Shown piece after piece: positions 18,145 to 47,213 of a stretch of 64,000 bases of DNA; position 1 is the stretch's first letter, and the number at the start of each line of letters is the position of its first letter. This stretch comes from Bdellovibrionales bacterium (GTDB lineage: Bacteria; Bdellovibrionota; Bdellovibrionia; Bdellovibrionales; UBA1609): assembly GCA_965219095.1 (NCBI GenBank), contig OZ244719.1, forward strand, positions 288,001 to 352,000, read 5' to 3'. The position numbers and the translations under genes are program-made. The notes beneath the pieces were generated by a model that had not been told where the DNA came from, made no database searches, and worked only from the letters and a program-made list of their open reading frames with translations.

Positions 18145-19747
18145 ATTTCTTCTATTTTATAATATTATGCCAATTACAGAAATTAATTCGACATTTTTAT
18201 GTTCAAATTTAAAATTTTAAAATTGACTTAAGGAAAAGCTTCAGTTAGGAGATTTTAAAAAAACTTTTTTTGAGGGGAGGTTGAGTTTTCATAAGATATG
18301 TTTATTTCAGGTATATCTATTTGTTGTGTGAATCGATTGATGGGTTAAAATAAGTGAAAAAGTGAGGGTAAAATTTAAAATGACAAAAATCAGTTACACA
18401 ATTTAATTTATAGGTTCAAATTAATTTACAAGCTTGATTCATCTTGTTGTTTTCCCCAAGATTAATCCTGCCCTCCTGATCGCAAAAAGTATTCCAGGCC
18501 TCACAACAAGTATTCACTATATGGTCATAGTTTTTAAAACATGCATTCGATAATTTGATCCTTCGTAATTGTTGCCAGACTTGTTCCATGGGATTTAATT
18601 CTGGACTATAAGGAGGTAAAGGCATCAGGGATAAATTCTTAGGAACTATCAAAGTCTCTGTGGTATGCCAACTGGCTCTGTCCATTAAAACAATTCCATG
18701 ATAGTTTTCTTGAATATTTTTAGATATCTCATCTAAGTGAATTTGCATCATCCCTGAATTACATTCCGGTAAAATCCAAGCACAGCCTTTATCTTTATCC
18801 GGACAAACTGCTCCAAAAATATAAGTGGATAAAAATTGTCTTTGCCTCACAACTCTAGGCCGTGTGCCTTTTCTTGCCCAAATCCTGCTCAAAGAACCTT
18901 GCTGAGCTTATTCTGCATTCATCCTGCCACCAAATCTCTATTTTATGAGTCTGAATCTTTTCTTTTATTTTCTCCACCTCTTCTGGAAAATGTTCCTTAA
19001 ACTGTTCCATAGCTTCTTAATGAACTTTTAGGATGAAGAGAACGACCACTGATCCATACAATATTAAGGCGGTCTAAAGAAACATAAACCCTAGAAAGAG
19101 AATAGCAACTATCACAATTCATCTGCTAAAAGTTCCTGTATTCCCTTTGCTCCTATGCTTCCTCCTTCTCTTTTGTCTTGAATTTCATCTAACTTGATTT
19201 TAAAGTTCTCCTCTTCTGTTTCTGTCACTGGCAAACGAGGCTTGCGTCCTCTGCCTTCTCGATCTATCAATCCCTCGTAATCAAAGTCTACAAAAAAAGA
19301 CTGTAACCAGGATTTGATACTGTGACGATGATACAAAACCATACCTAGCTGTTTCTTGAATCGATTTTCCTTCTTAAATATGGTGCAAAACCAATAGTTT
19401 TGCCTTGATGTTGGCACTTCTTTCCACTTTGTTAAATAGCTAGAAAATCATACCCTTAAATCTGTGTAACTAAATCTTTTTTCGACGGTAAATCAAAAAG
19501 ACAGGTCACTGGTTTAAGCCATGATAGTGACCCTAAAGTACTTGCAGAAGGAGGTGATTTTTGAGACAAATTCTAAACCCTTTAGCTGGCCTGGTTTTTA
19601 AGGCCTCAAAGGGTGTTTTCCCTTTTTTTCGATTAAGCCTGTATTTTTGTGAAGGCTTACTCGAAAAAAAGGAAAAAGCAAAAAAAAGATGTAAAATAGG
19701 ATTTCAAGACTTTATTTATAAATAAACCAACAAAGGAGGAAAATAAA

Positions 19748-20751
19748 ATGTATGATCACTATATAGCCGTAGATTGGGCACAAAGTAACATGGCCATTAA
19801 GGATGACAGGCAAATCAAAAGATATTAAGACTATGGACACGATTTCAGATCTTGGGAATCTTCGTGCCTATTTAAAAACCCTGAAAGGTAAGAAGATATT
19901 GACTATCGAAGAGACTACAACTTCGACAGTGGTTGTATTCAGAATTAAAGGATAGTGTTGATGAGCTCATAGTCTGTGATCCTCTTCGGAACAGACTTTT
20001 AAGTGAAGGGGCTAAAACTGATAAAATTGATGCTGAAAAACTTGTTTTATTGTTACGCTCTGGCCTTTTGAAACCAGTCTTTCACTCAGGTGATGAATTC
20101 ATTTACCTTCGTAAGATTGTCAGTGGGTATGAAGATGTAGTTAAAAGAGGAGTTCGTGTTAAAAACCAAAGATCAGCTCTGTTTCGAGCTTCCCATCTTG
20201 ATGCTAAGAAGCAGACTCAATTAAAACGGGCAGAAGAGATATATTTGTTCTAGAAGGCTTAGATAAAGCTATCAGTGCTTATGGGGAGGAGAAAGCACGT
20301 TATGAAGCAGAGTTTAAGAGGCTAAGTAAAAAACACAAAGATATTAGAAATCTTAGTAGCATTCCAGGAATTGGTTCTATCAAGGCTATCAAGATTGTAG
20401 CCAGGGTTGTAGTGCCTCACCGATTTAAACGTAATTCCTGGTGGAGTGGACTGCGGACTTGTAAAGCTACATAAAATGAGTGGTGGAAGGTCTTATGGAA
20501 CTAAGAAGTCTAGGTTTTGCCCACAAATGAAAAGTGTTTTTAAGATAGCTGCACTCTCAGTTATAGGAAATAACAATAAATTTAATGATTTTTATGAAGA
20601 ATTGATCAAAAAAAATTTACCACCACACACTGCTAGAAACGTTACCAACTAGAAGAATTGCAGCTTTAACTTTAGGTGTTTTCAAGTCTGAAAAAAATAT
20701 AAACCTTATGGAGAACGTAAAAATGTAAATAATAATAAAACAACCTTATAA
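19748..20751 (+). pseudogene. IS110 DEDD recombinase, frameshifted
   Basis: MYDHYIAVDW, KTDKIDA, SIPGIG, CGL..KMSGG spread across several frames. Confidence 0.88.
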
Positions 20752-20832
20752 AATCATCTGTTTAAAGTTTCTTGCATAGTAAGTAACAATACAAATAATG
20801 ACTTTATGAGGTGAGGATAGATAGCTTAATTA

Positions 20833-22530
20833 CCTGAGTTCGTGCTCAAAAATGTACACTACAGACGGACGTTTTTTTGACAAGACTTTTTCCAATAGAT
20901 CTTAGTATTTTTTCTTGAACTTTATTCAAAGCTACTGTTTTGATAAGTCTAGTTTTATTTTTTCGGTCATAAAGATAGACATTATACATGCTACCGAGTT
21001 CTTCAAGAGCTTCCTCTGGAGACATCTGCATCTTTTCAAGCTTCATTTTTAGAATTGAAAGTATCAGACAAGATAAATAGCATATAAAGACATGTGATTG
21101 AACTCTGTTGTAAAGCCAATGACGAATTGGTCTCAAATTTGTTATTCCCTTTAAGGTCCTAAAAGATTTTTCAATTATCTCTTTCTTATAGTACAAATTA
21201 ACAATATCTTTTGCAGAGATCTTTTTTGTAGAAAATATACAAGAGTAACCATCAAACTCAGATTCTAAATTCAACCGATCTCTTCTTAATCTTCCTGTTG
21301 GAGTAAGGTATTTTTCCAAACCTGGTTTTATATTTTTATTTTTAGACAAAAGAATTTGTGCGTTTGCAATTTCGTCCAAACGAGATTCTCTTATATCTAA
21401 AGCTCTCCTTTGATTGTAACAAACAACTAAACGTCCTTTGATTTTTCCAACATTGTGATTAATGCTCTGAGCATACAAGGTACCACTTGATAACCTGATG
21501 CGATGGGATACATCAACAATAGAGTCTAGCCTTATCATTTTTCTAATCAAATCCTTCTCTTTTTTTCTGAGAGCAATCCCACAAAGCGTATTCCAGCCCA
21601 AATCATTGATTTCATTGAGGTTTCTCTCTGAAAAAATGCCTCTGTCGTAAACAAACATTCCTCCACTTAGTCCATAGTTTGCAAATCCATCGGATAAACT
21701 TAGTAGAGTCCTGCTATCGTGTATGTTTCCACTAAAAGTTTTATGAAACACTGGTATTCCTTCTTTTTGAGTTGTCACCAAACCAATTTGAATCAAAGGA
21801 TTTCCACGTTTCCCATCCTTACTCTTTCCTAATTTTCCAAGCTGACATTTGCTACCATAAAGGTATGTATTGGTAACATCGTACACCAACCCTTTTAGCT
21901 CAAGATTGTACCTTTTCTGAACACCTTGAAATATTTTCTTCTGTAAATTTTCTGGATCACTCTCTAAAGAATCTAGAGCAGAAAGCAAACGACTTTCGGT
22001 TAGATCCTCTAAATTTAGCAAAGTGTTTAAATCTGTTCTCTCATACCATTTTGGCATTTTTCTAAGGCTTTTGTAATCTAAACAGTGAGCATAGACCATG
22101 CTTAATATTTCATTGGAGTATTGGCCAAGAGATTTTTGCAAATCTATTTCCCTAGTATTTTATCTAAAACAAGCAAAGGACCATAAACCTTGACCTTTTC
22201 TATTTCAAGATCAGATGAACTCATTGAAATTACAGTTTCACCATTCTCTTCCTTCCCGATGTACCGAATATGCTTTTGGATAACTTTTCCATCAACCCTT
22301 TTGTTCTCTACTTCTGCAAGATATGTTACCTTTCCTCTTTTTATTCTTCTGATAAAGCTCATATTTCTCCCTCCTATAGTGTAATATATTACACTACAAA
22401 GGAAAATGCAAGGCAAGTTATTTTTTGTGATTTTATCTAAAAATCGAAAATTCCCCTATGAAAACTGAGATTTTTATGGAAAATGGGAAATTATAGCTTT
22501 GTAGTGTACATTTTTGGTCACGAATTTAGG
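20833..22530 (-). mobile_element. IS1634-family element, transposase split near 22143
   Basis: ~30-bp imperfect IR CCT(G/A)A(G/A)TTCGTG..AAAAATGTACACTACA; TSD TTAATTA (20826-32, 22531-37); YDVTNTY, YDRG, IEKSFR. Confidence 0.92.
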
Positions 22531-22740
22531 TTAATTAGAGTGATATTTATAAAAAATTCATTTCGACGAATAGCACATCCTCTATTCCTGAAATTTACTA
22601 TAATCTAAGGTTTTAAATCTTCGGAATAAATTCATGATTTAAAACTAAAAAAGGTTTAGATAGACGCATGATAGGAATATGTTTTTTTTACAATGTGTAA
22701 AGGAAGAGTCATTAAAAAATGGAAAGGAAATGCAGGAAGT
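22531..22740 (+). ncRNA. Putative IS110 bridge/seek RNA, 3' part (5' part ~20765-20832, split by IS1634)
   Basis: Nested stems enclose target matches TTAGAGTG and TTTCGAC, and donor matches ATTTAC and GATAGAC. Confidence 0.75.
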
Positions 22741-22940
22741 TTTTTCTTAGGTGATTAGAATATTCGTGACCGTATGCAAAAAAAATTTTTTATATTTTTT
22801 GTAAATGGAGAAGTGTTTTTTCTTGACATACTTTTTGATAGACACTCTAAAAATTTATAACAGAGTTTGATCAAAAAGCCAGGACACAATGTGTTAAAAG
22901 AATGTCGAATTAATTTTTGGAAATGGTATTATAAAATCCT

Positions 22941-24449
22941 ATGAAGTCCGTACGTCTCAGGTTTGCTCCTAGTCCTACAGGTTATTTGCATGTAGGAGGA
23001 GCGAGAACAGCTCTTTATAATTACCTTTTTTCTAAAAAGAAAAAAGGTAATTATATTCTTCGTATTGAGGATACAGATGAACAAAGAAGTTCAAAAGAGT
23101 TTTTAAAAGATCAAATGCGAGATTTGAAGTGGTTAGGGCTTTGTTGGAATGAAGGTTATGAAAAAGGCGGTAAATGGGGGCCTTATTTACAAAGTAAAAG
23201 GCGTCAACTCTATCAAAACTATGCTGATCAGTTAATTTCTGAGAAAAAAGCTTATTATTGTTTTATGACTGACGAAGATATATTAGATCAAAAAAGAAAA
23301 CAAAAAGAAAGAAAAGATATATTTCAGGCAGTCAGTCCTTACAGAAATCAAAACATTACAAAAACTGAAGCTGAAAAAAGAGGCCTTTATACGGTTCGTT
23401 TCAAAATAAAAGAAAAAAAAGAGGTTTATACTTTTTTTGACGAGATTAGAAAAGAAGTAAAGTTTCCTTCTGATATGGTAGGAGATTTTGTGTTGATACG
23501 TTCAAATGGCATGCCTGTTTATAATTTTTGTTGTGTTATCGATGATCATAAGATGGCTATAACTCATGCATTCCGTTCAGAAGAACATCTTTCTAACACT
23601 TTGAAGCAACTTATGATCTATGAAGCTTTCGGCTGGACTCCTCCTCGGTGGGTCCATCTATCTATAATTCTAGGCGACAACCGACAGAAGTTAAGCAAAA
23701 GACATGGGGCTGTAAGCTGCCATGAAATGCGTTCTAAAGGTTATCTGCCAGAAGCTTTAAACAATACTCTTGCTCTTTTAGGCTGGAGCCATCCTGAGGG
23801 AAAAGAGGTATTAGACAAAAAAGAACTTATAGAAAGTTTTTCTTTAGAACGTCTACAAGCCTCCCCCGCTGTTTTTGATCTTAATAAACTCAATTTTCTT
23901 AACAGCCAACACCTTTGGCATTCAGGTGAAAGTCAGGACAAAATTTTTACAAAAAAAATTCTTCCCTTTTTCAAAGAAATAAAGAATATAGAATTTAAAA
24001 AAATAAATCCCTCCTATTATGAAACAACCGTTAATAATAAGCCATTTGTTTTGCGATCTGAAATGTTTGTCGACACCTGCAAAGCTGTAACTCAGACTTT
24101 ACAACAAGTTTATGAGGTATTTGAAATCATAACAAAAGAGAATTTGGAACTTGATAAAAATGATGACTTAACAAAAGAAGTTTTAAGTTGGCCTGAAACT
24201 AAAAATGTCATTTACTTTTGGAAAGAAGAGCTATCAGGGTTTAACCAACAATTTTTTAGCAAAGAAAGTTTTCTAGAGGTACAAAAAAAGATTCAAAATA
24301 CATTTAAAATCAAAGGAAAAAAGCTCTTTATGCCCTTAAGATTAAGCATTTTAGGAAGACCTCAAGGTTTTGAGATTAAAGAAATTGTCCCCCTTATTGA
24401 GATTTCAAAATTAAAAGCAAAGGCTCAGTATGTCGCTCAGTATTTATAA
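22941..24449 (+). CDS. gltX: Glutamate-tRNA ligase
   Basis: RFAPSPTGYLHVGGAR, LRIEDTD, KLSKR. Confidence 0.97.
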   Translation: MKSVRLRFAPSPTGYLHVGGARTALYNYLFSKKKKGNYILRIEDTDEQRSSKEFLKDQMRDLKWLGLCWNEGYEKGGKWGPYLQSKRRQLYQNYADQLISEKKAYYCFMTDEDILDQKRKQKERKDIFQAVSPYRNQNITKTEAEKRGLYTVRFKIKEKKEVYTFFDEIRKEVKFPSDMVGDFVLIRSNGMPVYNFCCVIDDHKMAITHAFRSEEHLSNTLKQLMIYEAFGWTPPRWVHLSIILGDNRQKLSKRHGAVSCHEMRSKGYLPEALNNTLALLGWSHPEGKEVLDKKELIESFSLERLQASPAVFDLNKLNFLNSQHLWHSGESQDKIFTKKILPFFKEIKNIEFKKINPSYYETTVNNKPFVLRSEMFVDTCKAVTQTLQQVYEVFEIITKENLELDKNDDLTKEVLSWPETKNVIYFWKEELSGFNQQFFSKESFLEVQKKIQNTFKIKGKKLFMPLRLSILGRPQGFEIKEIVPLIEISKLKAKAQYVAQYL

Positions 24450-25848
24450 TAGTTTAACAAGAAAAAAAGAGTTGTTTAGGCCGGTTAAAGAAAAAAAAGT
24501 GACCATGTATGTTTGCGGACCTACTGTTTATGATTATCTTCATGTAGGTAATTTCAGAGGAAGTGTGTTTTTTAACATGGTACGTAGCTGGCTTGAAGAA
24601 CTAGGTTACAAAGTCATTTATGTGTTTAATTACACAGATGTAGATGACAAGGTCATTGAAGCATCAAAGAAAGAAAAAATAACAGCTTCAGAGGTAGCCG
24701 ATAAGTACATTAAAGCTTTTGAAGAGGATTATAAGTGCTTAGGATTAAAGCCCCATGATCATAACCCTCGCATTACAGAGTTTATGGGAGAAATCATTTC
24801 TTTTATTGAGGATTTGCTCAAACAAGATAAGGCCTATGTTGTGAAAACTGAACATGGAAAAGATGTGTTTTATGACATAAAAGCGTTTAGAAATTACGGC
24901 AGATTAAGTAATAAGAAAATTGAAGAATTAGCTAGAGGTGTACGTATTGATATAAGCGAGGGGAAGAAAAATCCTAGTGATTTTGTGTTGTGGAAATCAG
25001 CAAAACAAAATGAACCTTTTTGGGATTCTCCTTGGGGGAGAGGACGTCCTGGATGGCATATTGAGTGCTCAACTATGAGCCAAGCTCTTTTAGGTGATGA
25101 AATTGATATTCATGGTGGAGGCTTAGATCTGATCTTCCCCCATCATGAAAATGAAATTGCTCAAAGCGAAGGACGCACTCAAAAAACTTTTGTTAGGTAT
25201 TGGATGCATCATAACATGCTTGATTTAAAAGGTGAAAAAATGTCTAAATCTTTAGGAAACCTCATTAAAGGAAGGGTTTTTTTTAGAACCTATGATTCAG
25301 AAGTTTATAAATACATGATTTTATCCTCCCATTATAGAAGTGTAATTGATTTTTCAGAAAAGCAAATCCATATAGCTATTAATAGATTAGCTCGTATTTA
25401 TTCAGCTTTAAAAGAATCTAAAGAAAGCTCACATGAAAATAAGTTTGATCCTGTTTTAGAAAAAGCAGACAAAGGTTTTAAAGATGCTCTTAATGATGAT
25501 TTTAACACAGTCGAAGCTTTGGCTCGTGTTTTTGAAGTGATAAGAGAGTTTAACAAACTTCAGGACCATAAAAAAACTAAATCCTTTTACACTTGGCTTG
25601 TGAAAAAAGGGGAACTTATGTCTCTTTTTCAAAGAAAACCTCATGAGTACCTCCAATTTTTAGATAATTTTCTCTTAAAACAAAAAGAACTTTCAAGACA
25701 GAATATTGAAAAGTTAATACAAGAAAGACTTCAAGCTAGAAAAGAAAAAAACTACATTCTTTCTGACAAAATTAGAAATAAGCTTACAAATTTAGGTATT
25801 TTAGTTAAAGATCTGAAAGATACAACTGTTTGGGAGGTCAAAAAGTGA
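24430..25848 (+). CDS. cysS: Cysteine-tRNA ligase
   Basis: [29 protein letters not shown]. Confidence 0.98.
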
Positions 25849-27848
25849 GGCCGTTTAAGATCCACTCCCCTTTTAAACCTTGTGGAGATCAACCTCAAGC
25901 CATTCAATCTTTGGTTGAAAATTTTAAGAAAAACAAGAAGAAACAAGTTTTGTTAGGGGTTACAGGTTCGGGAAAAACTTTCACTATGGCTGGAGTTATA
26001 GAGCAACTTAAAAGGCCTACTTTGATTTTAGTTCATAACAAAACTCTAGCAGGTCAGTTGTATGCTGAATTTAAATCCCTTTTTCCTGAAAATGCAGTCG
26101 AATACTTTGTGAGCTACTACGATTATTATCAACCTGAAGCTTATATTCCTTCCACTCATACTTTCATAGAAAAAGATTCTTCCATTAATGATCAGATTGA
26201 TCGTATGAGACATGCGGCAACCCGTGCTTTAATAGAAAGGGAAGATGTGATTATTGTTGCAAGTGTTTCTTGTATTTATGGCTTAGGAAGCCCTGATATT
26301 TATAAAAAGCTTGTTTTAAATGTGAAAGCTGACACACAGATGAATAGGAACCATTTTTTAAGAGATTTAGTAAAACTTCAGTACTCAAGAAATGATATAG
26401 ACTTTAAAAGAGGAACATTTAGAGTGAGGGGTGATAGTGTGGAGGTCTTCCCTCCTTCTGAAGAGGAACGTATTGTGAGAGTTGAGTTCTTTGGTGATTT
26501 TATAGAACAGATCTCATGGCTTGATTCTTTGAAAAAAATAACTTTGAAAAAAGTAGATGAGATAAGTTTTTTTCCTACCAATCATTACATAGGAACAGAG
26601 GAAATTAACAAAAGAGCTATAGAAAGCATTCGCAAAGAGCTAAGAGAGATGATTCAAAAATACAAAAGGTCTGTTGATATGCTCAAGGCTGAGAGAATTG
26701 AACAAAGGACATCCTATGATTTAGAACTTATGGGAGAGTTGGGCTTTTGTCCTGGTATTGAGAACTACTCACGACATTTTAGCGGAAGGCAAGAAGGAGC
26801 CCCTCCTCCTACTTTATTAGAGTACTTTCCTGAAGACTTTCTTTTAATCATTGATGAAAGTCATGTGAGTGTACCTCAAGTCGGAGGTATGTATAGAGGT
26901 GATAGAGCTCGAAAACTCACTCTTGTAGAACATGCTTTCCGTCTCCCTTCGGCTTTAGACAACAGACCTTTGAACTTTCAGGAGTTTGAAGATTTTTTGG
27001 ATAAAACTCTTTATGTCTCTGCTACACCAGGAGAGTATGAACTAAGAAAAAGCTCTGGTCTTATTGCAGAACAGATCAATCGTCCTACAGGGCTTCTTGA
27101 TCCTCAAGTAGAAGTAAGAAAGGCTAAATATCAGGTTGATGATCTCTTAGATGAAATTAAAAAATGCGTGTCAAAAAAACAAAGAACTTTAGTGACAACT
27201 TTAACAAAAAAAATGGCTGAAGATTTGACCCATTACTATTCCAGCATAGGAATTAAGGTTAAGTATTTACACAGTGATGTTAAAACCATTGAACGTATGG
27301 AAATTGTCAGAGATTTAAGATTAGGTGTGTTTGATGTTTTAATAGGCATCAACCTTTTAAGAGAGGGTCTTGATCTTCCTGAGGTGAGTTTGGTAGCAAT
27401 TTTAGATGCAGATAAAGAAGGTTTTTTAAGATCTCAAACTTCTTTGATCCAAACCATAGGAAGGGCTGCTCGTCATATAGAAGGAAAAGCCCTGCTTTAT
27501 GCTGACAGACAAACAAATTCTATAAAAAAAGCTATTGAAGAGACAAGAAGAAGACGGAAGATTCAAGAAGAACATAATAAAAAACATCATATCAAACCTC
27601 AAAGCATAAAATCTGAAATCAGACAAGGACTTATGGAAATTTTCACTAACACTGAAAAAGAAAAAGAGTTTTTAGAAAAAGAAGCTCAGAAGTACAAAAA
27701 AGATAGCAAAGCCCTAAAAGAAGACATCGCTAAGCTTCATGTCCAAATGAAAAAAGCTGCAGCTGAATTGAATTTCGAAGAAGCCTCTCGTTTAAGAGAT
27801 GAGATCAAAAGATGTAAGTTTTTAGAGCTTGAACTTTTAGACCATTAA
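25845..27848 (+). CDS. uvrB: Excinuclease ABC subunit B
   Basis: [26 protein letters not shown] start 25845 with GGAGG RBS. Confidence 0.98.
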
Positions 27849-27857
27849 ACTTCTTTT

Positions 27858-29711: not shown

Positions 29712-29727
29712 ATTGTTTGGGGGGCGA

Positions 29728-29934: not shown

Positions 29935-30228
29935 ATAACAACCTCCTTCTTAAAAACTTCTTCGGTTAGAACAGAAAAGAAGTTAAAGAAAAATAGGATT
30001 TTCTAGACCTTAGATATGGAAAACTATGAAAAAAGTTGCACTAGTGAATTTCCAGCTATGGAGATGCGTCCTATACCAACACGCACCAGTCCCATCAAGC
30101 CCAGCTCTAATGACCGTTTTTGATTCGACTATCCGAGACCTTAATCCACCTTTTTTAGAAGACAGATCATCTCATGGTTTTATTCCTTGTTTATCAAGTT
30201 CTATCCGACTAACGAGCTTTTTTTGTAA

Positions 30229-31469
30229 TACCATTTCCAAAAATTAATTCGACATTTTTTTAACGCATTGCGTCCTGGCTTTTTGATAAAACTCTGTTAA
30301 ATTTTTAGAGTCATGTCGAAAAAAGATTTAGTTACACAGATTCAAGGGTATAATTTTCTAGCTACTTACAAAGTAGAAAGAAGTGCCAACATCAAGACAA
30401 AATTATTGGCTTTGCAGCATATGCAAGAAGGAAAATCGATTCAAGAAACAGCAGGTATGGTTTTGTATCACCGTCACAGTATCAAATCCTGGTTACAGTC
30501 TTTTGTAGACTTTGATTACGAGGGATTGATAGATCGAGAAGGCAGAGGACGCAAGCCTCGTTTGCCAGTGACAGAAGAGGAGAACTTCAAAATCAAGTTA
30601 GATGAAATTCAAGACAAAAGAGAGGGAGGAAGCATAGGAGCAAAGGAAATACAGAAACTTTTAGCAGATGAATTTGACTGTTGCTATTCTCTTTCTGGGG
30701 TTTATGCTCTTTTAGACCGCCTTAATATTGTATGGATCAGTGGTCGTTCTCTTCATCCTAAAAGTTCACAAGAAGCTATGGAACAGTTTAAGGAACATTT
30801 TCCAGAAGAGGTGGAGAAAATAAAGGAAAAGATTCAGACTAATAAAATAGAGATTTGGTGGCAGGATGAATGCAGAATAGGCCAGCAAGGTTCTTTGAGT
30901 AGGATTTGGGCAAGAAAAGGCACACGGCCTAGAGTTGTGAGGCAAAGACAATTTTTATCCACTTATATTTTTGGAGCAGTTTGTCCGGATAGAGATAAAG
31001 GCTGTGCTTGGATCTTACCGGAATGTAATTCAGGGATGATGCAAATTCACTTAGATGAGATATCTAAAAATATTCAAGAAAACTATCATGGAATTGTTTT
31101 AATGGACAGAGCCAGTTGGCATACCACAGAGACTTTGATAGTTCCTAAGAATTTATCCCTGATGCCTTTACCTCCTTATAGTCCAGAATTAAATCCCATG
31201 GAACAAGTCTGGCAACAATTACGAAGGATCAAATTATCGAATGCATGTTTTAAAAACTATGACCATATACTGAATACTTGTTGTGAGGCCTGGAATACTT
31301 TTTGCGATCAGGAGGGCAGGATTAAAAAATTATGCACTCGATCTTGGACAAAACAACAAGATGAATCAAGCTTGTAAATTAATTTGAACCTATAAATTAA
31401 ATTGTTTAACTGATTTTTTTCATTTTAAATTTGAACATGAAAATGTCGAATTAATTTCTGTAATTGGTA
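30229..31469 (+). mobile_element. IS630-A, intact transposase 30313-31377
   Basis: IRs TACCATTTCCAAAAATTAATTCGACAT / ATGTCGAATTAATTTCTGTAATTGGTA; WQDE, MDRASWH, LPPYSPELNPME. Confidence 0.95.
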
Positions 31470-33884: not shown

Positions 33885-33885
33885 T

Positions 33886-35202: not shown

Positions 35203-35287
35203 TAGTGTAACCTTAAGTTCTACCTTATTCTTAAAAACTTTTTTTTATGCTTTAAATCAGTTTATTTCTATGCTATAAATATAAAAT

Positions 35288-36592: not shown

Positions 36593-36703
36593 GAATTTTA
36601 ACGCACTTAGCCTTTAAAATAAAAGATTTTATAATACGATTAGAGGTGTTTTGATTATGAAGTACAATTTTATTTTAATCACTAACAACAAAAGGAGCTA
36701 TTT

Positions 36704-37453
36704 ATGACATTATTTTATATTCTTACAGCCATTTTAGTTATGATTTTACTTTCGGCCATAAAGATTTTACCAGAATGGGACCGTGGTGTAATCTTACAAT
36801 TTGGACGTTATGTGGGCATGAGAGGCCCTGGTATTATCTTTTTAATTCCCTTTGTTGAAAGAATCATTCGTGTTGACACTCGTACAGTAACTATGGACAT
36901 TCAACCTCAAGATATTATCTCTAAAGATAATGTAAGCTTAAAAGTGAATGCTGTAATTTACTTTAGAGTTTTGGATCCATCTCAAGCCATCACAAAAGTA
37001 GAAGATTATTATTTTGCTACAAGCCAATTAGCTCAAACAACTTTGCGATCTGTTTTAGGTCAGTATGAAATGGATGATCTTTTAAGCAATAGAGATAAGA
37101 TCAATCATACCCTTCAGGAAATCTTGGATCGATCTACTGAGCCTTGGGGAATTAAAATCACTACGGTAGAAATGAAGCAAATTGATTTACCTTCCACTAT
37201 GCAGAGGGCTATGGCTCGTCAAGCAGAAGCTGAAAGAGAAAGAAGAGCGAAGGTGATTAGTGCTGAAGGAGAGCTAGAAAGAGCTTCTAAACTAGCAGAG
37301 GCTGCAAACAATATGTCATCCTCTTCAGCTTTGTTTTTAGCTTATTTACAGACACTTACAGAGATTAGTGGAGAATCCTCTAAGCTTCTTGTTATCCCCC
37401 TCCCTATGGACATGTTAGAGCCTTTTGTGAGATCAAAGTCAAATCTCAAGTAA
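36704..37453 (+). CDS. Stomatin/SPFH (slipin) protein
   Basis: [27 protein letters not shown]. Confidence 0.95.
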
Positions 37454-37454
37454 A

Positions 37455-38705: not shown

Positions 38706-38767
38706 AAACGCTTAAAAGAGTAAGTTTCCCTTAAACGATGTGATATGATATGGAAAATTACTGTTAT

Positions 38768-38845
38768 GGTGACTGTAGTTCAGTTTGGTAGAGCCCCGGA
38801 TTGTGATTCCGGTTGTCGCGGGTTCAAGTCCCGTCAGTCACCCCA
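38768..38845 (+). tRNA. tRNA-His (GTG)
   Basis: G-1, GTGACTG/CAGTCAC acceptor stem, CCGGA-TTGTGAT-TCCGG anticodon arm, GGTTCAAGTCC, encoded CCA. Confidence 0.97.
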
Positions 38846-38965
38846 ATAGGCGCTGTTGCACAATGCTCTCTGAAAGCAGTTCTATTTTCATGATTTTTTA
38901 CGTTTTTTTATAAGGGAGTACTAAGATATTAGGGCTAAAGACTTGTTATTGATCTGTCATATTTA

Positions 38966-39061
38966 TACCATTTCCAAAAATTAATTCGACATTCTTTTAA
39001 CGCATAGCGTCCTGGCTTTTTAATCAAACTCTGTTAAATTTTTAGAGTGTCTATCAAAAAG
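38966..39061 (+). mobile_element. IS630-A left end joined at GTC to 10 bp of the IS110-A right end
   Basis: ...TTAGAGTGTC|TATCAAAAAG, same junction as 22831-22850 reversed. Confidence 0.82.
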
Positions 39062-39425
39062 AAAATATGGATGACCAGCCTTTTTTTGAAAATCTGGGAC
39101 TTAAAAACCCTGATTAGAAGAGTTAGACTCATCTAAGAAGTAAGCTCATAAAAAGGAGCTTACTATTAACAACAAAAAAGGAGGTCATCCAATGAAAAAT
39201 ATAATGTATATCGGCCTAGACGTCGATGATAAAAGTTTCACAGCTAGCTTAGTCAAAGAGGGCTTAAGTGTAATAGTCGCAACTTAATCTGACAGTTACC
39301 CTTTCTGGGTTGATAAAAAACTGTCTGTCAGTTTTTTATCAACCCAGAAAGGGTAACTGTCAGATCATATAACGTCTATTACAGCTTAAGCGACGAGGTC
39401 ATAAGTATAAAGAGCCGTCCCAACT
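39062..39425 (+). mobile_element. IS110-family element B, left end and transposase N-terminus
   Basis: GGAGG plus ATG 39192 MKNIMYIGLDVDDK; leader repeated (reverse) at 59187-59307. Confidence 0.72.
39269..39383. mobile_element. 115-bp MITE, TGTAATAG...CTATTACA, 7-bp TSD
   Basis: GCTTAAG direct repeat at 39262-68 and 39384-90; internal perfect 37-bp inverted repeat. Confidence 0.85.
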
Positions 39426-40320
39426 CCTGACTTCGACACAACACACTGCAATAAATGAATAATTTCAAATAGTTACAATTTTTGGGGCCACAGGAAAGGG
39501 TTTTTTAAAGGTCAGCAGATTCAGCAGATGTTGTGGAAAAGAGGCTCATAGAGGAGTCTCTTTTAAGCGAAAAAGCACTGTAAATTTCTTCTACTTCCTT
39601 TGTACAACCTGAGGGAAGGCGATAAAGTTTTTTCGTCTTTTTTTCTTTTAAAATACTGTACTGATCTCTTTTTAAGATCTTTCTCATTCTTTCAAAGCTT
39701 AAATTAAGTCCTGCTTGTTTGAGTTTATAAACCATTGTGTAAGAGATCGCATAGGCTAAAAAACAAATGGCAATGTGAGTTTCTATTCTTCTTTTTTTTC
39801 AATGATAAACAGGTCTCATCTTTAATGTCGTCTTATTCACTCTAAAAGCCTCTTCTATTCTCCACAGACTTCTGTAACGACTTAAAAGCTCACTGGCTGT
39901 CTTGTTTTGAACACTTGTTATAATTCCGTGAAGACCGTCCCACAAAGCTTCCTTTTCCATTTTCTCTTCATCTATGCTCACTTTCACATTGTCAACTTTA
40001 ATAAAACGTTTGGCCCCATGATTGGAGATCAACTGACTCACAGGAATCTCCTTGTTTCTTACTTTCTTCATCAAACGATTGATCAAACGCTCTCTTTGAT
40101 TTTGATCTCTTTTGGCTCTTTTTTTCGAATAACTGACTATCAATCTTTTTCCTTCATGCTCTAGCTCTTTCACCCAAAAAAGATGAGACGTATCACAAGC
40201 CACTTGGGTGGGCTTATAGTTTTTATAACTTAAAACCTCTTCTTTTTTCTTGCTAGAAAGGGATTTTAACTTTGCAGCCACAACATACTCTATCCCCATC
40301 TTATCCATAGTCTCTAAATT
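39426..40320 (-). mobile_element. IS1634-family 3' remnant with an internal stop
   Basis: YRSLWRIEEAFR..MRPVYH*, then RIETHIAICFLA; CCTGACTTCGAC end. Confidence 0.82.
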
Positions 40321-40388
40321 CGCCTCCTCAAAAGAATCTATGAGTAAAAACTAGACTCAACTCTCTGTGTGTGGATTTTGAAGTGCAA

Positions 40389-41945
40389 TCAGTATAGTTT
40401 CTTTACAGCCTGACTGACTTTCTTTGTGGATTCTTCTAGGGGTCTAATTTCGATCACTTTATAATGGTCAGTTTTATTCAGTCTTTCCACTCCATTCCAG
40501 AGCATGTAGGGAGCTTTCCAAAACCCAGTCCATGAATCAAAGTGTATGTTATGTCGAGTTTGAAAAGCTAGATTTTTATAAAGTTCACTAAAAATCTTAC
40601 CTCCAAAATTGTTCCAGATCACAAGATAGTAAGAACTCTCAGGAACAAATTGTTTGGCCCAAAGACCACTAAGATCATAAAGAGTGCTTAAATCACCTAA
40701 AAGAGCCCATGTTTTTTGTTCTTTTGAACAAAGCCCAAGGCTTGTAGATATGAGCCCATCAATACCGTTGACACCTCTTTGTGAAACAACACAGGAAACT
40801 TTGTAATGGTTTTGAGAAAATTCATCCCAGTAGCGCAGAGGAAGGCTGTTTCCTAAGAACACCTGGTCTTCTTTTCCTATGTTTTCTGACAAAGTTCTCA
40901 TGAGGGCTTGTTCTGAGAAAGGATGAGATTCTAGAATTTTTAGTTTTTCCTCATAAAGGAAGTCATCTTTTTTACGAAGTTGTTCAGAAAAACAAGTTTC
41001 TTTCAAAAACAAGTTCTTTTTTTTAAAAAACTCTTCAAAAGAAACAGGCTGTTTTTCCATAAAATCAAGACCCGAAAAAGGCTTATGACTGATGTTGAGA
41101 ACGTTTTTATTTTTTAAAGTCCTCCAAAACTTTAAAAAAGGAATAGAACCTATTCTTAAAACACTTTTAAAAGGAATTTGATTTATAAACTGTTCTCCTG
41201 AGGTAATGAGGTAGGGTTTGAGTTTATGAGATTCTCTTAAACCAGAGTGAGCCTCAGCATAAATGAATGTCTTTAGCTGAAAAAGAAAATTTTCTATATC
41301 TTTTTGGAACTTCAAGGGAATTTCCCCTAAAAGAACAAGGGGGTTTTTAAGAGCTTTTACTTTTTGATGGGATTTTCTAAAGTAAGAAGGAGCTTGAGAG
41401 GTCTTGAAAAAAGAACGTGAAAGATTCTTTGAAACTTCTAAGTTTTTAGTAAGAGATTTTAAATCATCTAAAAGGGGTTCTTCAAAACTTACGTTGATAT
41501 GAAGAGGATAAGAGAAACAAGAGGGAATTTTCAGTTTCTTGAAAGGCTCTAAATCGTAATTTTTTAATGTATAAGGAGAGAACATATTTTTTTGTTCTAT
41601 AGTTTGAGGGCAAGCTTTTTTTCTGAACCTATGAGGACGATCAGCTGAAAGTACAATAAGGGGGAGTTGAGAGTAACAAGCTTCAGTTACAGAAGATAAA
41701 AGATTGCTCACAGCTGTACCAGAGGTCGTCACAACACACACAGGACGTTTTGTTTTTTTGATTCGACCGATCGCAAAAAATCCAGACGAACGTTCTTCAA
41801 AAAAAAAGTAAACTTTAAGCTTCTTTTGGCGAGATAAAATTTCCACAAAAGGAGCATTCCTCGAACCAGACCCTACACAAAACTCTAAGACTCCCTTTTC
41901 CACAAGTTCTTTTATAAGGGAAAAAGCCCATTCTACTTGACTCAC
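40389..41945 (-). CDS. menD: SEPHCHC synthase
   Basis: GSRNAP, EERSSGFFA, TTSGTA, ADRP, RGVNGIDG, GDLS..YD. Confidence 0.93.
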   Translation of the reverse strand: MSQVEWAFSLIKELVEKGVLEFCVGSGSRNAPFVEILSRQKKLKVYFFFEERSSGFFAIGRIKKTKRPVCVVTTSGTAVSNLLSSVTEACYSQLPLIVLSADRPHRFRKKACPQTIEQKNMFSPYTLKNYDLEPFKKLKIPSCFSYPLHINVSFEEPLLDDLKSLTKNLEVSKNLSRSFFKTSQAPSYFRKSHQKVKALKNPLVLLGEIPLKFQKDIENFLFQLKTFIYAEAHSGLRESHKLKPYLITSGEQFINQIPFKSVLRIGSIPFLKFWRTLKNKNVLNISHKPFSGLDFMEKQPVSFEEFFKKKNLFLKETCFSEQLRKKDDFLYEEKLKILESHPFSEQALMRTLSENIGKEDQVFLGNSLPLRYWDEFSQNHYKVSCVVSQRGVNGIDGLISTSLGLCSKEQKTWALLGDLSTLYDLSGLWAKQFVPESSYYLVIWNNFGGKIFSELYKNLAFQTRHNIHFDSWTGFWKAPYMLWNGVERLNKTDHYKVIEIRPLEESTKKVSQAVKKLY

Positions 41946-42955
41946 TTTGTGATCCTAAAGAAAGATTTGACGGACTCTTTTTTCAGTTGAACCTCTTCCC
42001 ACTCTTTTTTCTCTATACTTTCACTGATGATACCACAGCCAGCACCAATTTGTGTTATATTTGAATCCCACCTTATGTTGCGAATGGCAATGATGGAAAA
42101 AAACTGATCTTTTCTAGGTAAGTAAACTCCAAACGGAGCACCCCATCTCTTTCTTTCTTGATTTTGTTGTTTTAAATAAGTCCACACCTTTATCAAAGGC
42201 ACTCCTCCTAACGCAGCCGTGGGATGAAGATGTTTTACAAGTCCCTCTATAGAAACATCATTTTTCAACTCCACTTCCATATCTGTTTTTAAATGAGCTA
42301 AAGAAGAAAGCTTCTTTAAAGTTCTTTTTGAAATATGCACTTTCCCTAGGGGGGTGAGCTTTCTCTTAAGGTCTGAGACTACAAACTCATGCTCTCTTAT
42401 CTCTTTTTTATCTTTTAAAAGTTTATCTATGTCAGTTATCTTTGAAGTTCCTGCTAAAGCCATGGTTTTAAGGTAGGACTTTTGTTTAGAAAATAACATC
42501 TCAGGGCTTCTTCCTATGAAGCCTTCTGTTTCATCCCATAGGCCATAAGAAAAAAGCTCTTCATCTGATTCGCAAAAAACCCTCTCAATCCAAGAAAGCC
42601 TTTCTTTGTAGGAGGGTTTTGTTTCAGAGTTAGAAAAAAAAACAGGGACAGCCTTTTGGAAATGGGCTTTTATAAACTGAAGCTCCTTGTTAAACTCTCT
42701 GCGACAAGAATCTTGAAAAACTCTTAAAAACTTCTCTTTTCTCTCAGTGTTAAAAAAAGAAGGGGAAGAGGTAAGTTGTGAGAAAGAGGGAACCCACCAA
42801 GGGGTATGAGTTTCTAAGAAAAAATCAGGTGCATAGAAGCTCATACTCTCAAGAGAGGGTTTTTTCTGCCAAACTCCTTTCCCCCAAGCCAAAACCCATA
42901 AAGAGGGTGTGATTTGTAAGAAGGCTCCGTTCTGAAAAAACTCACGACATAACAC
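41942..42955 (-). CDS. menF: Isochorismate synthase
   Basis: SPE, ALAGT, KEIREH, LHPTAALGG, GAGCGII; overlaps the menD start. Confidence 0.85.
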   Translation of the reverse strand: MLCREFFQNGAFLQITPSLWVLAWGKGVWQKKPSLESMSFYAPDFFLETHTPWWVPSFSQLTSSPSFFNTERKEKFLRVFQDSCRREFNKELQFIKAHFQKAVPVFFSNSETKPSYKERLSWIERVFCESDEELFSYGLWDETEGFIGRSPEMLFSKQKSYLKTMALAGTSKITDIDKLLKDKKEIREHEFVVSDLKRKLTPLGKVHISKRTLKKLSSLAHLKTDMEVELKNDVSIEGLVKHLHPTAALGGVPLIKVWTYLKQQNQERKRWGAPFGVYLPRKDQFFSIIAIRNIRWDSNITQIGAGCGIISESIEKKEWEEVQLKKESVKSFFRITK

Positions 42956-43018
42956 AAGGCTGTTTTTAATAAAAAAAAGTGGAAAAATCTAGGCTTTTCA
43001 TATAACTTTATCAAGTCT

Positions 43019-43825
43019 ATGAAAATTTCCCAGATGAATGTAGATTTTTCCAAAGACTTTCTTTTGATGGCAGGGCCTTGTTCTATTGAGTCATTTGAAC
43101 AACTCTCTCATGTGGCAAAGTGGGTGAAAGAAAAGGGAGCTTGTATTTTAAGGGGTGGGATTTTTAAATTAAGAACCTCTCATAAAAGCTTTCAGGGAAA
43201 GGGCCATGAAGCCTTTGATTGGGTTAAAACCATCAAAAAACAAACAGGTCTTCCTTTTATTAGCGAAATTACAGATCCAAGACAAATTGAAAGCTTCTTA
43301 GAGTTTGTAGATATTTTTCAAGTAGGTACACGTAACATGTACAACTATGAAATGCTAAAAGAACTGGGAAGCATTGATAAGCCTGTTTTGTTGAAACGCA
43401 GTTTTTGTAGTCGTGTTGAAGAATGGATCGATGCAGCTGAATATGTAGTTCAACATGGAAATGAAAATGTTATTTTATGCGAAAGAGGGATTCGCACTTT
43501 TGAGACTACAACAAGAAACACTCTTGATCTTAACTCAGTAGCTTTTATAAAACAAAACTTCTCCTTTCCTGTTATTGTGGATCCTTCTCATGGAACAGGA
43601 AAAAGATGTCTTGTAAAACCTATGAGCCTTGCTGCTCTAGCTTGTGGATCTGATGGCTTGATCCTTGAAGTTCACCCAGAACCTAAAAAAGCTCTCAGTG
43701 ATGGAGAACAAAGTTTAGATTTCAAGGAATTTCAAGATATTGTAACCGATCTGAAGCACCTTCTTCCTTCATTTCAAAAACAATTAAAAAGCCCTTCTTT
43801 AAGGCAAGACTCCTTAAGCCTATAA
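43019..43825 (+). CDS. aroF: DAHP synthase, type I-beta
   Basis: AGPCSIES, RGGIFKLRTS, LCERGIRTFE, DPSHGTG. Confidence 0.9.
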   Translation: MKISQMNVDFSKDFLLMAGPCSIESFEQLSHVAKWVKEKGACILRGGIFKLRTSHKSFQGKGHEAFDWVKTIKKQTGLPFISEITDPRQIESFLEFVDIFQVGTRNMYNYEMLKELGSIDKPVLLKRSFCSRVEEWIDAAEYVVQHGNENVILCERGIRTFETTTRNTLDLNSVAFIKQNFSFPVIVDPSHGTGKRCLVKPMSLAALACGSDGLILEVHPEPKKALSDGEQSLDFKEFQDIVTDLKHLLPSFQKQLKSPSLRQDSLSL

Positions 43826-44538
43826 TGGAAGATAACAGAAGTCAAAAAGATAAGAAAAAAGGCCCTTCAAAAAAAACCATCCAAGCTCTTTTTAGTCGTG
43901 TCGTTGAGGGTTATGATTTAGCCAACGATCTGATAACTCTAGGACGTATAAGAGCTTGGAGAAGAAGACTTGTTGAAAAAAGCGGAGTTAAAAACCAAGA
44001 TCTTGTTTTAGATATAGCTACAGGAACAGGAGATCTAGCCTATGAATTTTATAAGAAAAGGGCCTCTGTAAGGGGAGCTGATTTTTGTGAAAAAATGCTT
44101 GAAAAAGCAAAAAAAAAGTATCCCAAGCTTTCTTTTGAATACGCTGATCTTATGAATTTAAAATACGAAGATAATTTTTTTCATATTTCAAGTGTTGCGT
44201 ATGGACTTAGAAATGTAGAGGATTTAGAAAGAGCTCTTAAAGAGTTAGCCCGTGTAACACGTTCTTCAGGAAAAGTTCTTATTTTAGAAACAGGGAATAA
44301 GCCCTCCTTTTACATAAAGCCTTTTTTTCATTTCCATATGTGCTATCTTGTTCCTCTCATAGGCTCTTTTGTATCAAAAGATAAACTAGCCTATGAGTAT
44401 TTACAAACATCATCCTTTCAGTTTCCTGCAAGAGAAGAGTTTGTGAAACTTATAAAAGAAACGGGCTGTTTTGCCTCTGTAAATTATGAAGTTTTTATGG
44501 GGGGAGCAAGTTTTCTTTATTGTGCTGAGGTTATATAG
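43825..44538 (+). CDS. menG: UbiE/MenG methyltransferase
   Basis: YDLAND, LDIATGTGD, YGLRNV; next to menDF. Confidence 0.85.
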   Translation: MEDNRSQKDKKKGPSKKTIQALFSRVVEGYDLANDLITLGRIRAWRRRLVEKSGVKNQDLVLDIATGTGDLAYEFYKKRASVRGADFCEKMLEKAKKKYPKLSFEYADLMNLKYEDNFFHISSVAYGLRNVEDLERALKELARVTRSSGKVLILETGNKPSFYIKPFFHFHMCYLVPLIGSFVSKDKLAYEYLQTSSFQFPAREEFVKLIKETGCFASVNYEVFMGGASFLYCAEVI

Positions 44539-44607
44539 TGCTTCCGTTTAGGTTTTCATGTTTTTTCTCTAAAGAATCGACCGGAAAATCTAAGCGTATT
44601 CACTATA
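44534..44607. mobile_element. 74-bp IS630-derived MITE, copy 2
   Basis: Near reverse complement of 649-722; overlaps the menG stop codon. Confidence 0.85.
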
Positions 44608-44609
44608 TA

Positions 44610-46340
44610 CCTAAATTCCCGACAAAAAATATACACTAGGATTTAAGTTCTGCTCAGAATCTGGAAAATTTCTTATTCCCCCTCGTAAAAAGTAGGATTT
44701 CATAGAATTTTTAGAGATAAATACTCTTGCCTATGCTCAATCCTGATGTATAATATATACAGCAGGATTGCTAGGAGGATATACGATGAGTTTCATTAGA
44801 AGAATAAAAAAGAAAGATGGACAAGTTTATTTGGCTGAAGTTGAAAGCAAATGGATCAATGGGAAATCGGTCCAAAAGCATATTCGTTATATTGGAAAAG
44901 AGATTAATGGAGAAGTTGTGCTTTCTCTCTCATCAAAAGATCTCCAAGTGGATGGAGTTAAGGTATATGGCCCCCTTTTACTGTTCCATAGTATCTCAAA
45001 AAAAATTAAACTTCCAGAAATTTTAGGTAAATATTCTGATGAGATTCTCAGTATGATTTATGCCCACTGTATGGATTATAGAAGTGTACGTAATATGCCA
45101 AAATGGTACGAGAGGACAGACTTAAATCTTCTTTTAGATTTAGGAAATCTAACGGAAGCTCGATTAGTTAAAGCAATGGATAGTATAAATGATGATCAAA
45201 TAGAGATTTATCAAAGGTCTATTTTTAGCAACGTAAAAAAGATGTATAGGTTGGACTCTAAAGGAATAGTATATGATCTAACAAATACTTATTTTCATGG
45301 GAAGCATTGTGTTATGGGGAAAGTGGAAAGAAGTAAAGATGGGCGTCGACAAAATGATCTTATCCAAATAGCACTTGCAACGACTCAAAAGGACGGAATT
45401 CCAGTATTCCACAAAACCTTTGATGGAAATATCCATGACAGTAAAACTCTAGCGGACGTTTCCAATAATTTTTCTCAACACAGTCTTCAGTCTGGACTAC
45501 TCATCTATGATCGAGGCATAGTATCCGAGAAAAACATTGATTTCATAGGGGATTTAGGCTGGCACACGTTGTGTGGCTTGCCTATGCGAGAAAAAGAAAA
45601 AGCTATCATAAGACGAACTATAAAGAATGATTCTATAAATAATATTTCAAATATGGTGACAATTGGAGAAAGTATTTTTTACGTTAAAGGTATACCTCAT
45701 TCATTCGGATCGATTAAAGGAAAGCTTGTCATCTGCTATAATGAATCTAAAAAAACAGAAATCACAGAGTCAAGGAGGAAAAGGATTCTAAATGCTCAGG
45801 AGTTAATAAATAAAAATAAAAAAATTGAAGAAGGACTTAGAAAGCACTTGACTCCCAGGGGAAGAATAAGAACTGATGTGTTAAAGAAAGATGAGGAGCT
45901 TGATGGATACTCGTGTATATTTTCTACGAAGAAGATCTCCGACAAAGAAATGGTGAGATTGTATTTTGACAAAGAGATCATTGAAAGAGCTTTCAAAACT
46001 TTAAAAGGTATTTCAAATGTACGCCCTATTAGATTTTGGTTAAATAAGAGAGTCAAGTCACATGTTTTTATCTGCTATTTATCTTATCTCATATTATCTA
46101 TCCTTAAACTAAGTCTAAAATCTAAGGGCATAAATATGTCGCCAGAAAAAGCAATTGAAAACTTAGAAACTATGTACAACGTTTATCTATCAGATAACCG
46201 TAAAAAACATAAATTTACTAGAACCGTAACTCTTAACAAAACTCAAGAACAGATATTGAAATCGGTGGACCCAAAAATTTTAAAGAATCACATAATGCTT
46301 TCTTGAAAACCTAGTATATACTTTTGGCCAAAAATTTAGG
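44610..46340 (+). mobile_element. IS1634-family element, intact transposase 44786-46306
   Basis: IR CCTAAATT..TATACACTAGG, TSD TATATA; YDLTNTY, YDRG, IERAFK. Confidence 0.93.
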
Positions 46341-46346
46341 TATATA

Positions 46347-46625
46347 GTGATCATACATTTTATTTTCCTCCTTTGTTGGTTTATTTATAAATAAAGTCTT
46401 GAAATCCTATTTTACATCTTTTTTTTTGCTTTTTCCTTTTTTTCGAGTAAGTCTTCACAAAAATACAGGCTTAATCGAAAAAAAGGGAAAACACCCTTTG
46501 AGGCCTTAAAAACCAGGCCAGCTAAAGGGTTTAGAATTTGTCTCGAAAAGCTCACCTCCTTCTGCAAGTACTTTAGGGTCACTATCATGGCTTAAACCAG
46601 TGACCTGTCTTTTTGATTTACCGTC
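46347..46625 (-). mobile_element. IS110-A left end, second copy, inserted in the IS630-A right IR
   Basis: Near-identical to the reverse of 19487-19760; junction ...GATTTACC|GTC|GAATTAATTTCTG. Confidence 0.88.
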
Positions 46626-46628
46626 GAA

Positions 46629-47213
46629 TTAATTTCTGTAATTGGTATCAGTATAGTTTCTTAAAATTTCATCTAAAAGATGAAGAGTTGATTCTATTTC
46701 AACTTTTTGAGTTTCTAAAAAGTCTTGTGTGACAGGAACTGTATTATTTAAAATAAAATCTAAAGCTATTCTTTTTTTATAAGAAGAGTCAGGGTTTAAT
46801 ACATGGAGGTGCTCTAAAAGACTTTCTCCCAAAAAAAACGTTAATAAAGCTACAAGTGCGTACATCACATAACCTATCGAAGGTAAAATCAGAACAACTC
46901 CTAGGGTCACTGTTAACCAAGAAAGAAGAAGTCCAGAAGCTTTTACCCATCTTTTGACTTCTTGCCAAATCCTTTCAGACTCTAAATCATCTATAAAATA
47001 AAAGCCTCTACCTCCTATAAGTTCACACGTCACATAATTTTCATAAGGAGAACATCTTTCAAGTTTAAGTCTTTTTTCATCTAGTTGCTCAATTCGTAAA
47101 AATATAGAGGCTTCTTCTCTTGGAATATCTCTTAGATCTTTTTTTTGATTAGGAAAGTAAGAAAGGACTAAAGATGAATGAAAAGTAAAATAAAGCAGAA
47201 AAAGAAATTTCAT
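46629..47213 (-). CDS. Hypothetical exported/membrane protein, C-terminus supplied by the IS630-A IR
   Basis: Signal-like N-terminus, two TM helices, stop codon lies inside the IR. Confidence 0.6.
   Translation of the reverse strand: MKFLFLLYFTFHSSLVLSYFPNQKKDLRDIPREEASIFLRIEQLDEKRLKLERCSPYENYVTCELIGGRGFYFIDDLESERIWQEVKRWVKASGLLLSWLTVTLGVVLILPSIGYVMYALVALLTFFLGESLLEHLHVLNPDSSYKKRIALDFILNNTVPVTQDFLETQKVEIESTLHLLDEILRNYTDTNYRN

Follow-up and report, generated by a model that had tools for sequence, protein, structure and literature searches.

The DNA analysed here (G000:C1:288001-352000, a stretch of 64,000 nucleotides, hereafter the window) belongs to a 3.11-Mb Bdellovibrionales genome with 34% GC, and carries remains of an insertion sequence, IS110-A, lodged in copies of another transposable element, IS630-A. 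Throughout the genome, most left junctions of IS110-A lie in IS630-A, and guides found in the 3' non-coding region of the element spell the two IS630-A sites that are hit. The explanation that we regard as probable is that IS110-A was an RNA-guided element aimed at IS630-A by two alleles of its right-target guide, V1 and V2, and that composites of both elements later spread as units.

Insertion sites in the window and genome-wide

The initial annotation had reported three traces of IS110-A in the window, all of them in IS630-A sequence, and when their positions were re-read in the sequence all three proved to be there: a complete insertion at the start of one IS630-A copy, a right end at 39049-39061 and a left end abutting 46623-46647. 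Its description of the target as TTC-GAC-A stands in part, since the left half TTCGAC is correct, whereas relatives of the element show that the core is a single C and not "GAC". The traces at 39049-39061 and 46623-46647 do lie in IS630-A, but each of them displays half of the target rather than all of it. The features, in window coordinates, are:

18168..22928, reverse strand: degraded IS630-A host copy, split at its GTG start and flanked by TTA (18165-18167 and 22929-22931); family taken from the sister copy at 30313-31374
19481..19486, forward strand: left target half TTCGAC, whose final C is the 1-nt core (core size from relatives)
19487..22842, forward strand: IS110-A copy, ~1.65 kb plus a nested IS1634, with guide allele V2 and in the site spelled by V2
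19492..19500, forward strand: left sub-terminal inverted repeat, 9 bp, perfect
19748..20750, forward strand: pseudogene of a DEDD recombinase, frameshifted several times and with an approximate 3' boundary (open reading frame list; PF01548 on fragment 19933-20250)
20806..20832, forward strand: probable 5' stem strand of the guide RNA target loop, separated from the guides by IS1634 (from alignment with relatives)
20833..22530, reverse strand: IS1634-family element nested in IS110-A directly 5' of the right-target guide (NF033559, 250.9 bits; ends)
22534..22542, forward strand: right-target guide (RTG) in its V2 version, whose complement is the core C with ACTCTAA at the start site of IS630-A
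22560..22567, forward strand: left-target guide (LTG), ATTTCGAC
22593..22598, forward strand: candidate right-donor guide (RDG), complementary to the IS110-A left end (covariation with relatives by eye only)
22658..22665, forward strand: left-donor guide (LDG), AGATAGAC, matching the IS110-A right end (relatives with AGATAGGC end in CATAGGC)
22831..22839, forward strand: right sub-terminal inverted repeat
22843..22850, forward strand: core C and right target half (C-ACTCTAA)
30228..31468, forward strand: uninterrupted IS630-A copy with the ATG-start allele, unmatched by V2, with a 354-aa open reading frame
38966..39061, forward strand: IS630-A left end with the AATC haplotype (38966-39048), directly followed by the terminal 13 bp of the right end of IS110-A (39049-39061)
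39269..39383, forward strand: mini-IS481; its right terminal repeat is an unoccupied example of the IS110-A target that ranks second in use
46342..46622, reverse strand: left end and leader of IS110-A, cut short by a further IS1634
46623..46647, forward strand: outer 25 bp of the IS630-A right terminal repeat, a V1-type site, joined to the left part of IS110-A

A genome-wide search for IS110-A ends gave 48 left-type and 43 right-type matches, and the removal of 12 and 6 of them, respectively, as sister subfamilies or noise left 36 left and 37 right junctions. Although IS630-A makes up 4.0% of the genome, it holds 28 of the 36 left junctions, 24 within the right terminal repeat (a segmental duplicate contributes two of these) and four at the GTG start, and all 28 share a single orientation, these two sites and the 1-nt C core. 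TTCGACA occurs 480 times in the genome, 168 of them outside the IS630-A repeat or start contexts, and against this background the presence of 28/28 TTCGAC-type left junctions in IS630-A is more than chance would give. Junctions mostly outside IS630-A, which the initial annotation had named as an outcome that would refute its idea of specific targeting, were thus not found. That idea holds for the majority of insertions and fails as exclusivity, given that four left junctions are in the right terminal repeat of IS481 (a target formerly labelled IS66-like, which was replaced by IS481) and another four are found in an ISL3 gene, at the end of another repeated element, in a ~17-copy repeat and just behind a transposase-like frame. 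The right junctions comprise 14 at the start, seven in the right repeat, five in IS481 and 11 others, which by eye are three in ISL3, two IS481-like, one start-like, four T-ended sister or rearranged ends and one single.

Further sequences are associated with the ends of IS110-A. T-ended right junctions occur in sites like the target of a sister subfamily (69% identical; C1:10350-11050, C2:705042, C2:625727), whose RTG is complementary to GATTTACT, a sequence close to that of the IS110-A left end read on the reverse strand. At several loci, the right sub-terminal repeat of IS110-A is joined to a second element, whose N-terminus looks IS110-like by eye, as if this element targeted IS110-A (window 39062-39260; C2:890915, C2:959439, C2:1136228, C1:709974, C2:1616973).

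The element, its guides and their targets

Judged by its remains, IS110-A is a decayed, dead IS110-family element, IS1111-like in build. No intact recombinase was found among its copies in this genome (the longest natural frame has 143 aa), and DNA homologous to the element was absent from 29 of the 30 kin genomes searched, the remaining one giving a 37-bp match. The best relatives of the recombinase (82-85% identity over 143 aa) carry both PF01548 (DEDD), which is also recognised on the window fragment, and PF02371; the closest relatives of the element sit in Bdellovibrionales records, and relatives score 115-116 bits on the NCBIfam IS110 model, below its cut-off of 140. The other traits of the family are found too, namely a putative non-coding RNA with guides for the target and donor halves (recognised by sequence alone) and site- and orientation-specific insertion at a short core. 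As in IS1111, a long non-coding region (~385 bp) follows the transposase and contains all four guides, and the top-strand guide precedes the bottom-strand one (in IS110-A as in its relatives, the RTG lies 5' of the LTG); at ~265 bp, the 5' leader is long as well. The ends bear a 9-bp perfect sub-terminal repeat with 6+3 extensions, which is within the 7-17 bp stated in the available text of PMC11208160 and under the usual 11-13 bp stated in that of PMC11187229. Of the C-terminal GL-P----S(t)G motif of IS1111, 30 aligned relatives keep the G, L and SG without exception and lack the proline, and for this reason IS110-A is filed as IS1111-like and not as a member.

The positions of the guides come from comparison: a natural IS110-A fragment led to intact relatives, and an alignment of these fetched 138 loci, of which 96 were examined. 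A conserved non-coding anchor was present in 29 of the 96, yielding 26 distinct guide pairs. In 21 relatives, the LTG matches the seven bases before the core in the own left flank at a mean of 5.0/7 positions, versus 2.48 in shuffles (maximum 3.95 in 20,000 shuffles), while the RTG matches at 7/7 in nine of the 12 usable relatives (mean 6.33 versus 4.02; of the 29 loci, 14 lacked the anchor or an end and three were duplicates). The donor guides covary with the element ends in relatives, as judged by eye, and the resulting arrangement is RTG-LTG-RDG-LDG with one C as core. Covariation ruled out the first guesses (an AC core, ACAATGT or GAAGTGT as right guide and GACCGT as donor guide). Folded jointly, 23 sequences give a two-lobed consensus in which 18 of 33 pairs show compensatory changes. 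Regarding expression, the hexamer TTGACA at 22823 could be the -35 box of a circle-junction promoter; a promoter scan of the linear DNA, which leaves the circle junction outside, gave no sites.

Among the 20 loci of the genome that retain the left guide of IS110-A, seven carry V1, nine V2 (two of them, a duplicate pair, with one extra change), two V3 and two other alleles. V1 and V2 have the LTG ATTTCGAC in common and differ at three of 357 testable positions, all in the RTG, and the sequence around these guides diverges by ~1.7%. Each allele spells a site of its own: TTCGAC-ATTTTTA, the V1 target, has 47 exact matches in the genome, all in the IS630-A right repeat, and TTCGAC-ACTCTAA, the V2 target, has 25, all at the IS630-A GTG start (with 16-mers, 48 of the 49 best matches for V1 and 25 of 25 for V2 lie in IS630-A). 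Shuffled 13-mers match any of 50 IS630-A copies 138 (V1) and 21 (V2) times per 300,000, which corresponds to chances of 5e-4 and 7e-5. The guide sequences also fit the observed site choice: no left junction lies in the IS630-A left repeat (142 left-repeat copies), none of the 19 start junctions is in the ATG allele (62 intact ATG copies), and the seven right junctions in the right repeat are all in the V1-matching allele. The empty left repeat had been considered as proof of amplification, which was dropped because the guide accounts for it equally well. As far as sequence can tell, the RNA-guided targeting proposed in the initial annotation gains support here, in that the element's own guides spell both IS630-A sites.

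V3 goes, loosely, with the IS481-repeat and ISL3 sites, its likely targets, which it fits only with a one-base bulge. A comparable bulge is seen in a sister element of genome G032 (8 of 12 pattern matches being its right junctions), which is inserted in the terminal repeat of an IS4-like element of 1391 bp (hidden Markov model score below cut-off); in the same genome, the right-end ~50 bp of a relative is tandemly repeated at one locus (L159, L163). Among relatives, guides differ by one or two point changes. Guide polymorphism was not found in a relative with eleven copies (L047-L056, L064), which come from one Bdellovibrionales record, are all inserted in a repeated palindromic element and have T as core. 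Genome G031 has two guide sets, in scaffolds 91-92% identical, and 6 of the 10 left junctions of the closest relative there (L184, L190, L192, L196, L198, L200) lie in one repeated sequence.

The guide region itself has been interrupted several times. IS1634-like ends of at least four variants share one insertion point, a TAATTA next to the V2 RTG on its 5' side, in 5/9 V2 copies and 0/7 V1 copies, and IS1634-like insertions split the guide RNA gene at window 20833-22530, C1:172924, C1:526936, C2:1475178 and C2:2072273. In a relative, copy L018 is cut at the 5' edge of the RTG by a sequence that we take, as a candidate, to resemble the start of a group II intron. In L204 (C2:1616900-1617500) and L014 (C2:625400-627600), which have other left guides, the left end is joined inverted at the RTG core, possibly by self-targeting.

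The IS630-A host, composites and competing explanations

The transposase of IS630-A is an IS630 DDE enzyme (NF033545, 215.9 bits for a cut-off of 100; PF13358), and 18 of the 50 full-length copies have an open frame. The IS630 family duplicates a TA target. Instead, IS630-A has the same TAA or TTA on both sides in 45 of 52 paired copies, and one empty site has TAA once, which is equally readable as a 3-bp TAA/TTA duplication or as a 1-bp duplication with longer ends; no paper was found that combines all the terms IS630, 3-bp, TAA/TTA and target site duplication. An IS110-A insertion at the start splits the left end of the host from its reading frame, and one in the right repeat keeps the 25 outer bases of IS630-A. 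The expectation of the initial annotation that such insertions would disable the host is thus sustained for transposase expression at the start site and not for mobility, on which two observations bear: three IS110-joined ends with a private terminal-repeat variant lie at different sites, and 72 perfect IS110-A targets are still empty. IS630-A is not eliminated by IS110-A. The ATG allele is distinguished from the GTG allele by an indel of 3 bp located precisely where IS110-A inserts; its reading as a host escape allele is unsupported, given that common polymorphism affects 74 of the 1436 columns of IS630-A. The same small start-site scar, possibly left by imprecise loss of IS110, is seen in three left ends of IS630-A with the AATC haplotype (window 59823-59955; C2:2191441, C2:2200697). 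Short palindromic elements in the window (44532-44610, 48235-48342 and 638-728) have the ends of a second IS630 family, and at 62332-62619 there are three tandem 96-nt repeats in overlapping short open reading frames.

In the reading that we favour, the 3' non-coding region of IS110-A would encode a bridge or seek RNA with the guides RTG-LTG-RDG-LDG. Its LTG reads TTCGAC, a motif present in both terminal repeats of IS630-A and across its start codon, and its RTG would set the site, V1 leading to the right terminal repeat and V2 to the GTG start. IS110-A would have inserted at the C core in one orientation, with IS630-A as a multi-copy safe harbour. In IS630-A copies hit twice, a deletion between the co-oriented IS110 copies would have removed the transposase, leaving IS630 ends around one IS110, and some of these composites would then have been copied as units, most likely by the IS630 transposase in trans. 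One double-hit IS630-A copy, with IS110-A at both sites in the same orientation, is found at C2:1421823-1423840. Around 15 loci appear to be composites, made of the outer right repeat, IS110 and the host left end and devoid of host transposase; two composite pairs (left plus right junction) are still linked.

If those ~15 loci are composites, an excess of left junctions in the repeat and of right junctions at the start is expected, and the repeat:start ratio is indeed 24:4 on the left versus 7:14 on the right (p=2.6e-4). Furthermore, 15 of the 19 host left ends joined to IS110 carry a haplotype present in only one of 30 intact GTG copies (p=3.5e-8), and the private terminal-repeat variant occurs in 3/26 IS110-joined right repeats versus 0/89 intact ones; the common haplotype and the private variant both point to copying as a unit after insertion. 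Due to the asymmetry and the common haplotype, the junction counts overstate the number of independent insertions, and the caveat of the initial annotation that the junctions could descend from one ancestral composite moved by IS630 is borne out in part. Nevertheless, the full insertion in the window has a host haplotype unlike the common one (which the trace at 39049 does have) and is hence a separate event. Two other lines were abandoned: the TAA duplication of the composite at C2:1748081-1749671, inside an IS3, whose flanks do not rejoin, and the four copies in which the 13-bp right end is followed by the second IS110, taken as proof of IS630 spread, since the second element may target that site.

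Several observations weigh against this reading. The best ungapped match of V3 (14/16) is elsewhere than its likely targets, and of the five copies whose two junctions come from a single site, only two have the guide that spells this site best, a mismatch that could come from in-trans action, from wobble pairing of V2 on the repeat or from recombination between copies. A single IS110-A copy folds no better than shuffles (z -1.1), and the shuffle tests overstate significance because the relatives are kin. As for the composites, host left-end and IS110 3' haplotypes are not linked (Mantel r=0.17, p=0.23, 12/18 copies), so that their clonal spread is not proven; in addition, an empty site could be assigned to only 1/24 outer flanks, and the flanks of the best-preserved composite do not rejoin.

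This lack of linkage would suit a different history, to which we give a minor though real chance: a saturation wave in which almost every member of an older IS630-A lineage received IS110-A at both sites and then collapsed in place through recombination between its two IS110 copies, with intact IS630-A expanding after the death of IS110-A, little IS630-driven spread and a real suppression of the host (the guides being unchanged). In its favour, the AATC/GTTAA left ends are distributed as 15 IS110-joined, one intact and five scarred or deleted, and the joined ends look older, with rare substitutions in 6/18 of them versus 9/89 intact left ends (p=0.013); moreover, one frameshift is common to 12 of 15 copies over several target classes, which fits repeated in-trans insertion of IS110. 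Nonetheless, ~15 separate double hits would be needed, each followed by a deletion, and the private repeat variant occurs in three copies at different TWA sites, with identical IS110 leader deletion and single-nucleotide polymorphisms, and is absent from 89 intact ends. At the other extreme, there might be no real specificity, just a degenerate short motif plus purifying selection, with one or two ancestral insertions amplified by IS630. The abundance of repeats (36% of the genome is in repeats with at least five copies), the junction asymmetry, the common haplotype and the eight left junctions elsewhere could be understood in that way, but the exact matches of both guide alleles are confined to IS630-A, at the chance levels given above, and the window copy is a separate insertion by its host haplotype. 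The guide matches largely refute this possibility, which we consider very improbable.

A further question is how V1 and V2 arose. In a target-templated rewriting, the RTG would be overwritten by the seven bases beside the insertion site, so that a single step would convert either of V1 and V2 into the other. The concentration of the three fixed differences in the RTG, the lack of intermediates among seven V1 and nine V2 copies, and the fact that only one of 945 triple substitutions of the V1 right target yields an IS630-A TTCGAC site, namely V2, speak for it. So does C2:1617244, where the junction of an element left end falls precisely on the core position within the DNA of the RTG itself, which indicates that RTG DNA can be a recombination substrate. 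However, two of the three differences exchange A and G and preserve G:T wobble with the repeat site, which would open a stepwise, selected path between V1 and V2; besides, the guides of relatives differ by one or two point changes, the guides do not track their own flank (2/5), and a natural three-base redirection is already described, in the available text of PMC11187229, between ISEc21 and ISMch6. We therefore judge rewriting unlikely by a wide margin, and think just as little of its broader version, in which the IS110 family re-aims by copying flank bases into the guide and V1/V2 would be one such event frozen in a conflict that nearly wiped out the IS630-A lineage, the 3-bp indel being a host escape allele.

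IS110-A among known guided elements

The targeting of other elements by the IS110 family is already known. IS4321 and IS5075, of the IS1111 group, are described in the available text of PMC8269217 as targeting the terminal inverted repeats of the Tn21 family as a "safe harbor", and resemble IS110-A in entering the terminal repeat of another transposon; unlike them, IS110-A has an IS630 host, two sites each with its own guide allele, and composites without host transposase. ISEc21 (IS110 group) also targets another IS, at the catalytic codons of IS3-family transposases, with ISMch6 being redirected by three guide bases (PMC11187229, as far as its available text goes), which recalls V1 and V2. 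However, the guide RNA of ISEc21 is upstream and has the reverse guide order, whereas that of IS110-A is downstream, and ISMch6 is a separate element (the natural retargeting cases in that text compare elements 72% identical in protein), whereas V1 and V2 coexist in one genome at ~1.7% divergence. Similar in build, according to the available texts of PMC11187229 and PMC11208160, are the seekRNA elements ISEc11, ISKpn4 and ISPa11 and IS621 with its bridge RNA, which have a downstream non-coding region with the top-strand guide first. They also share with IS110-A the 6+3 terminal extensions and a recombinase of the size seen in IS110-A relatives (334-337 aa), and differ from it in its 9-bp sub-terminal repeat, the missing proline of GL-P----SG, the long 5' leader and the sub-cut-off NCBIfam score. 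Finally, two single off-target junctions of IS110-A end in TAGAC, which is donor-like, as in the LD-only insertions of IS621; for the latter, half-match insertion is backed by in vitro and editing data in the available text of 10.64898/2026.08.31.748434, whereas for IS110-A it is a resemblance in sequence.

No title or abstract dealing with an IS630 target, coexisting guide alleles or templated rewriting was found (mostly in open literature and main texts), the available text of 10.64898/2026.08.14.744561 makes no mention of IS630 or retargeting, and no explanation of how bridge or seek RNA guides gain natural targets was found in the papers located. The new part is the intragenomic guide pair together with the composites bearing host ends. 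Two aims coexisting in one genome are an unusual snapshot of natural re-aiming, and the V1/V2 pair is ready material for asking how much wobble is tolerated, whether re-aiming proceeds in steps or at once, and how the host is affected. The composites, in turn, suggest that a targeted IS may end up carrying its parasite.

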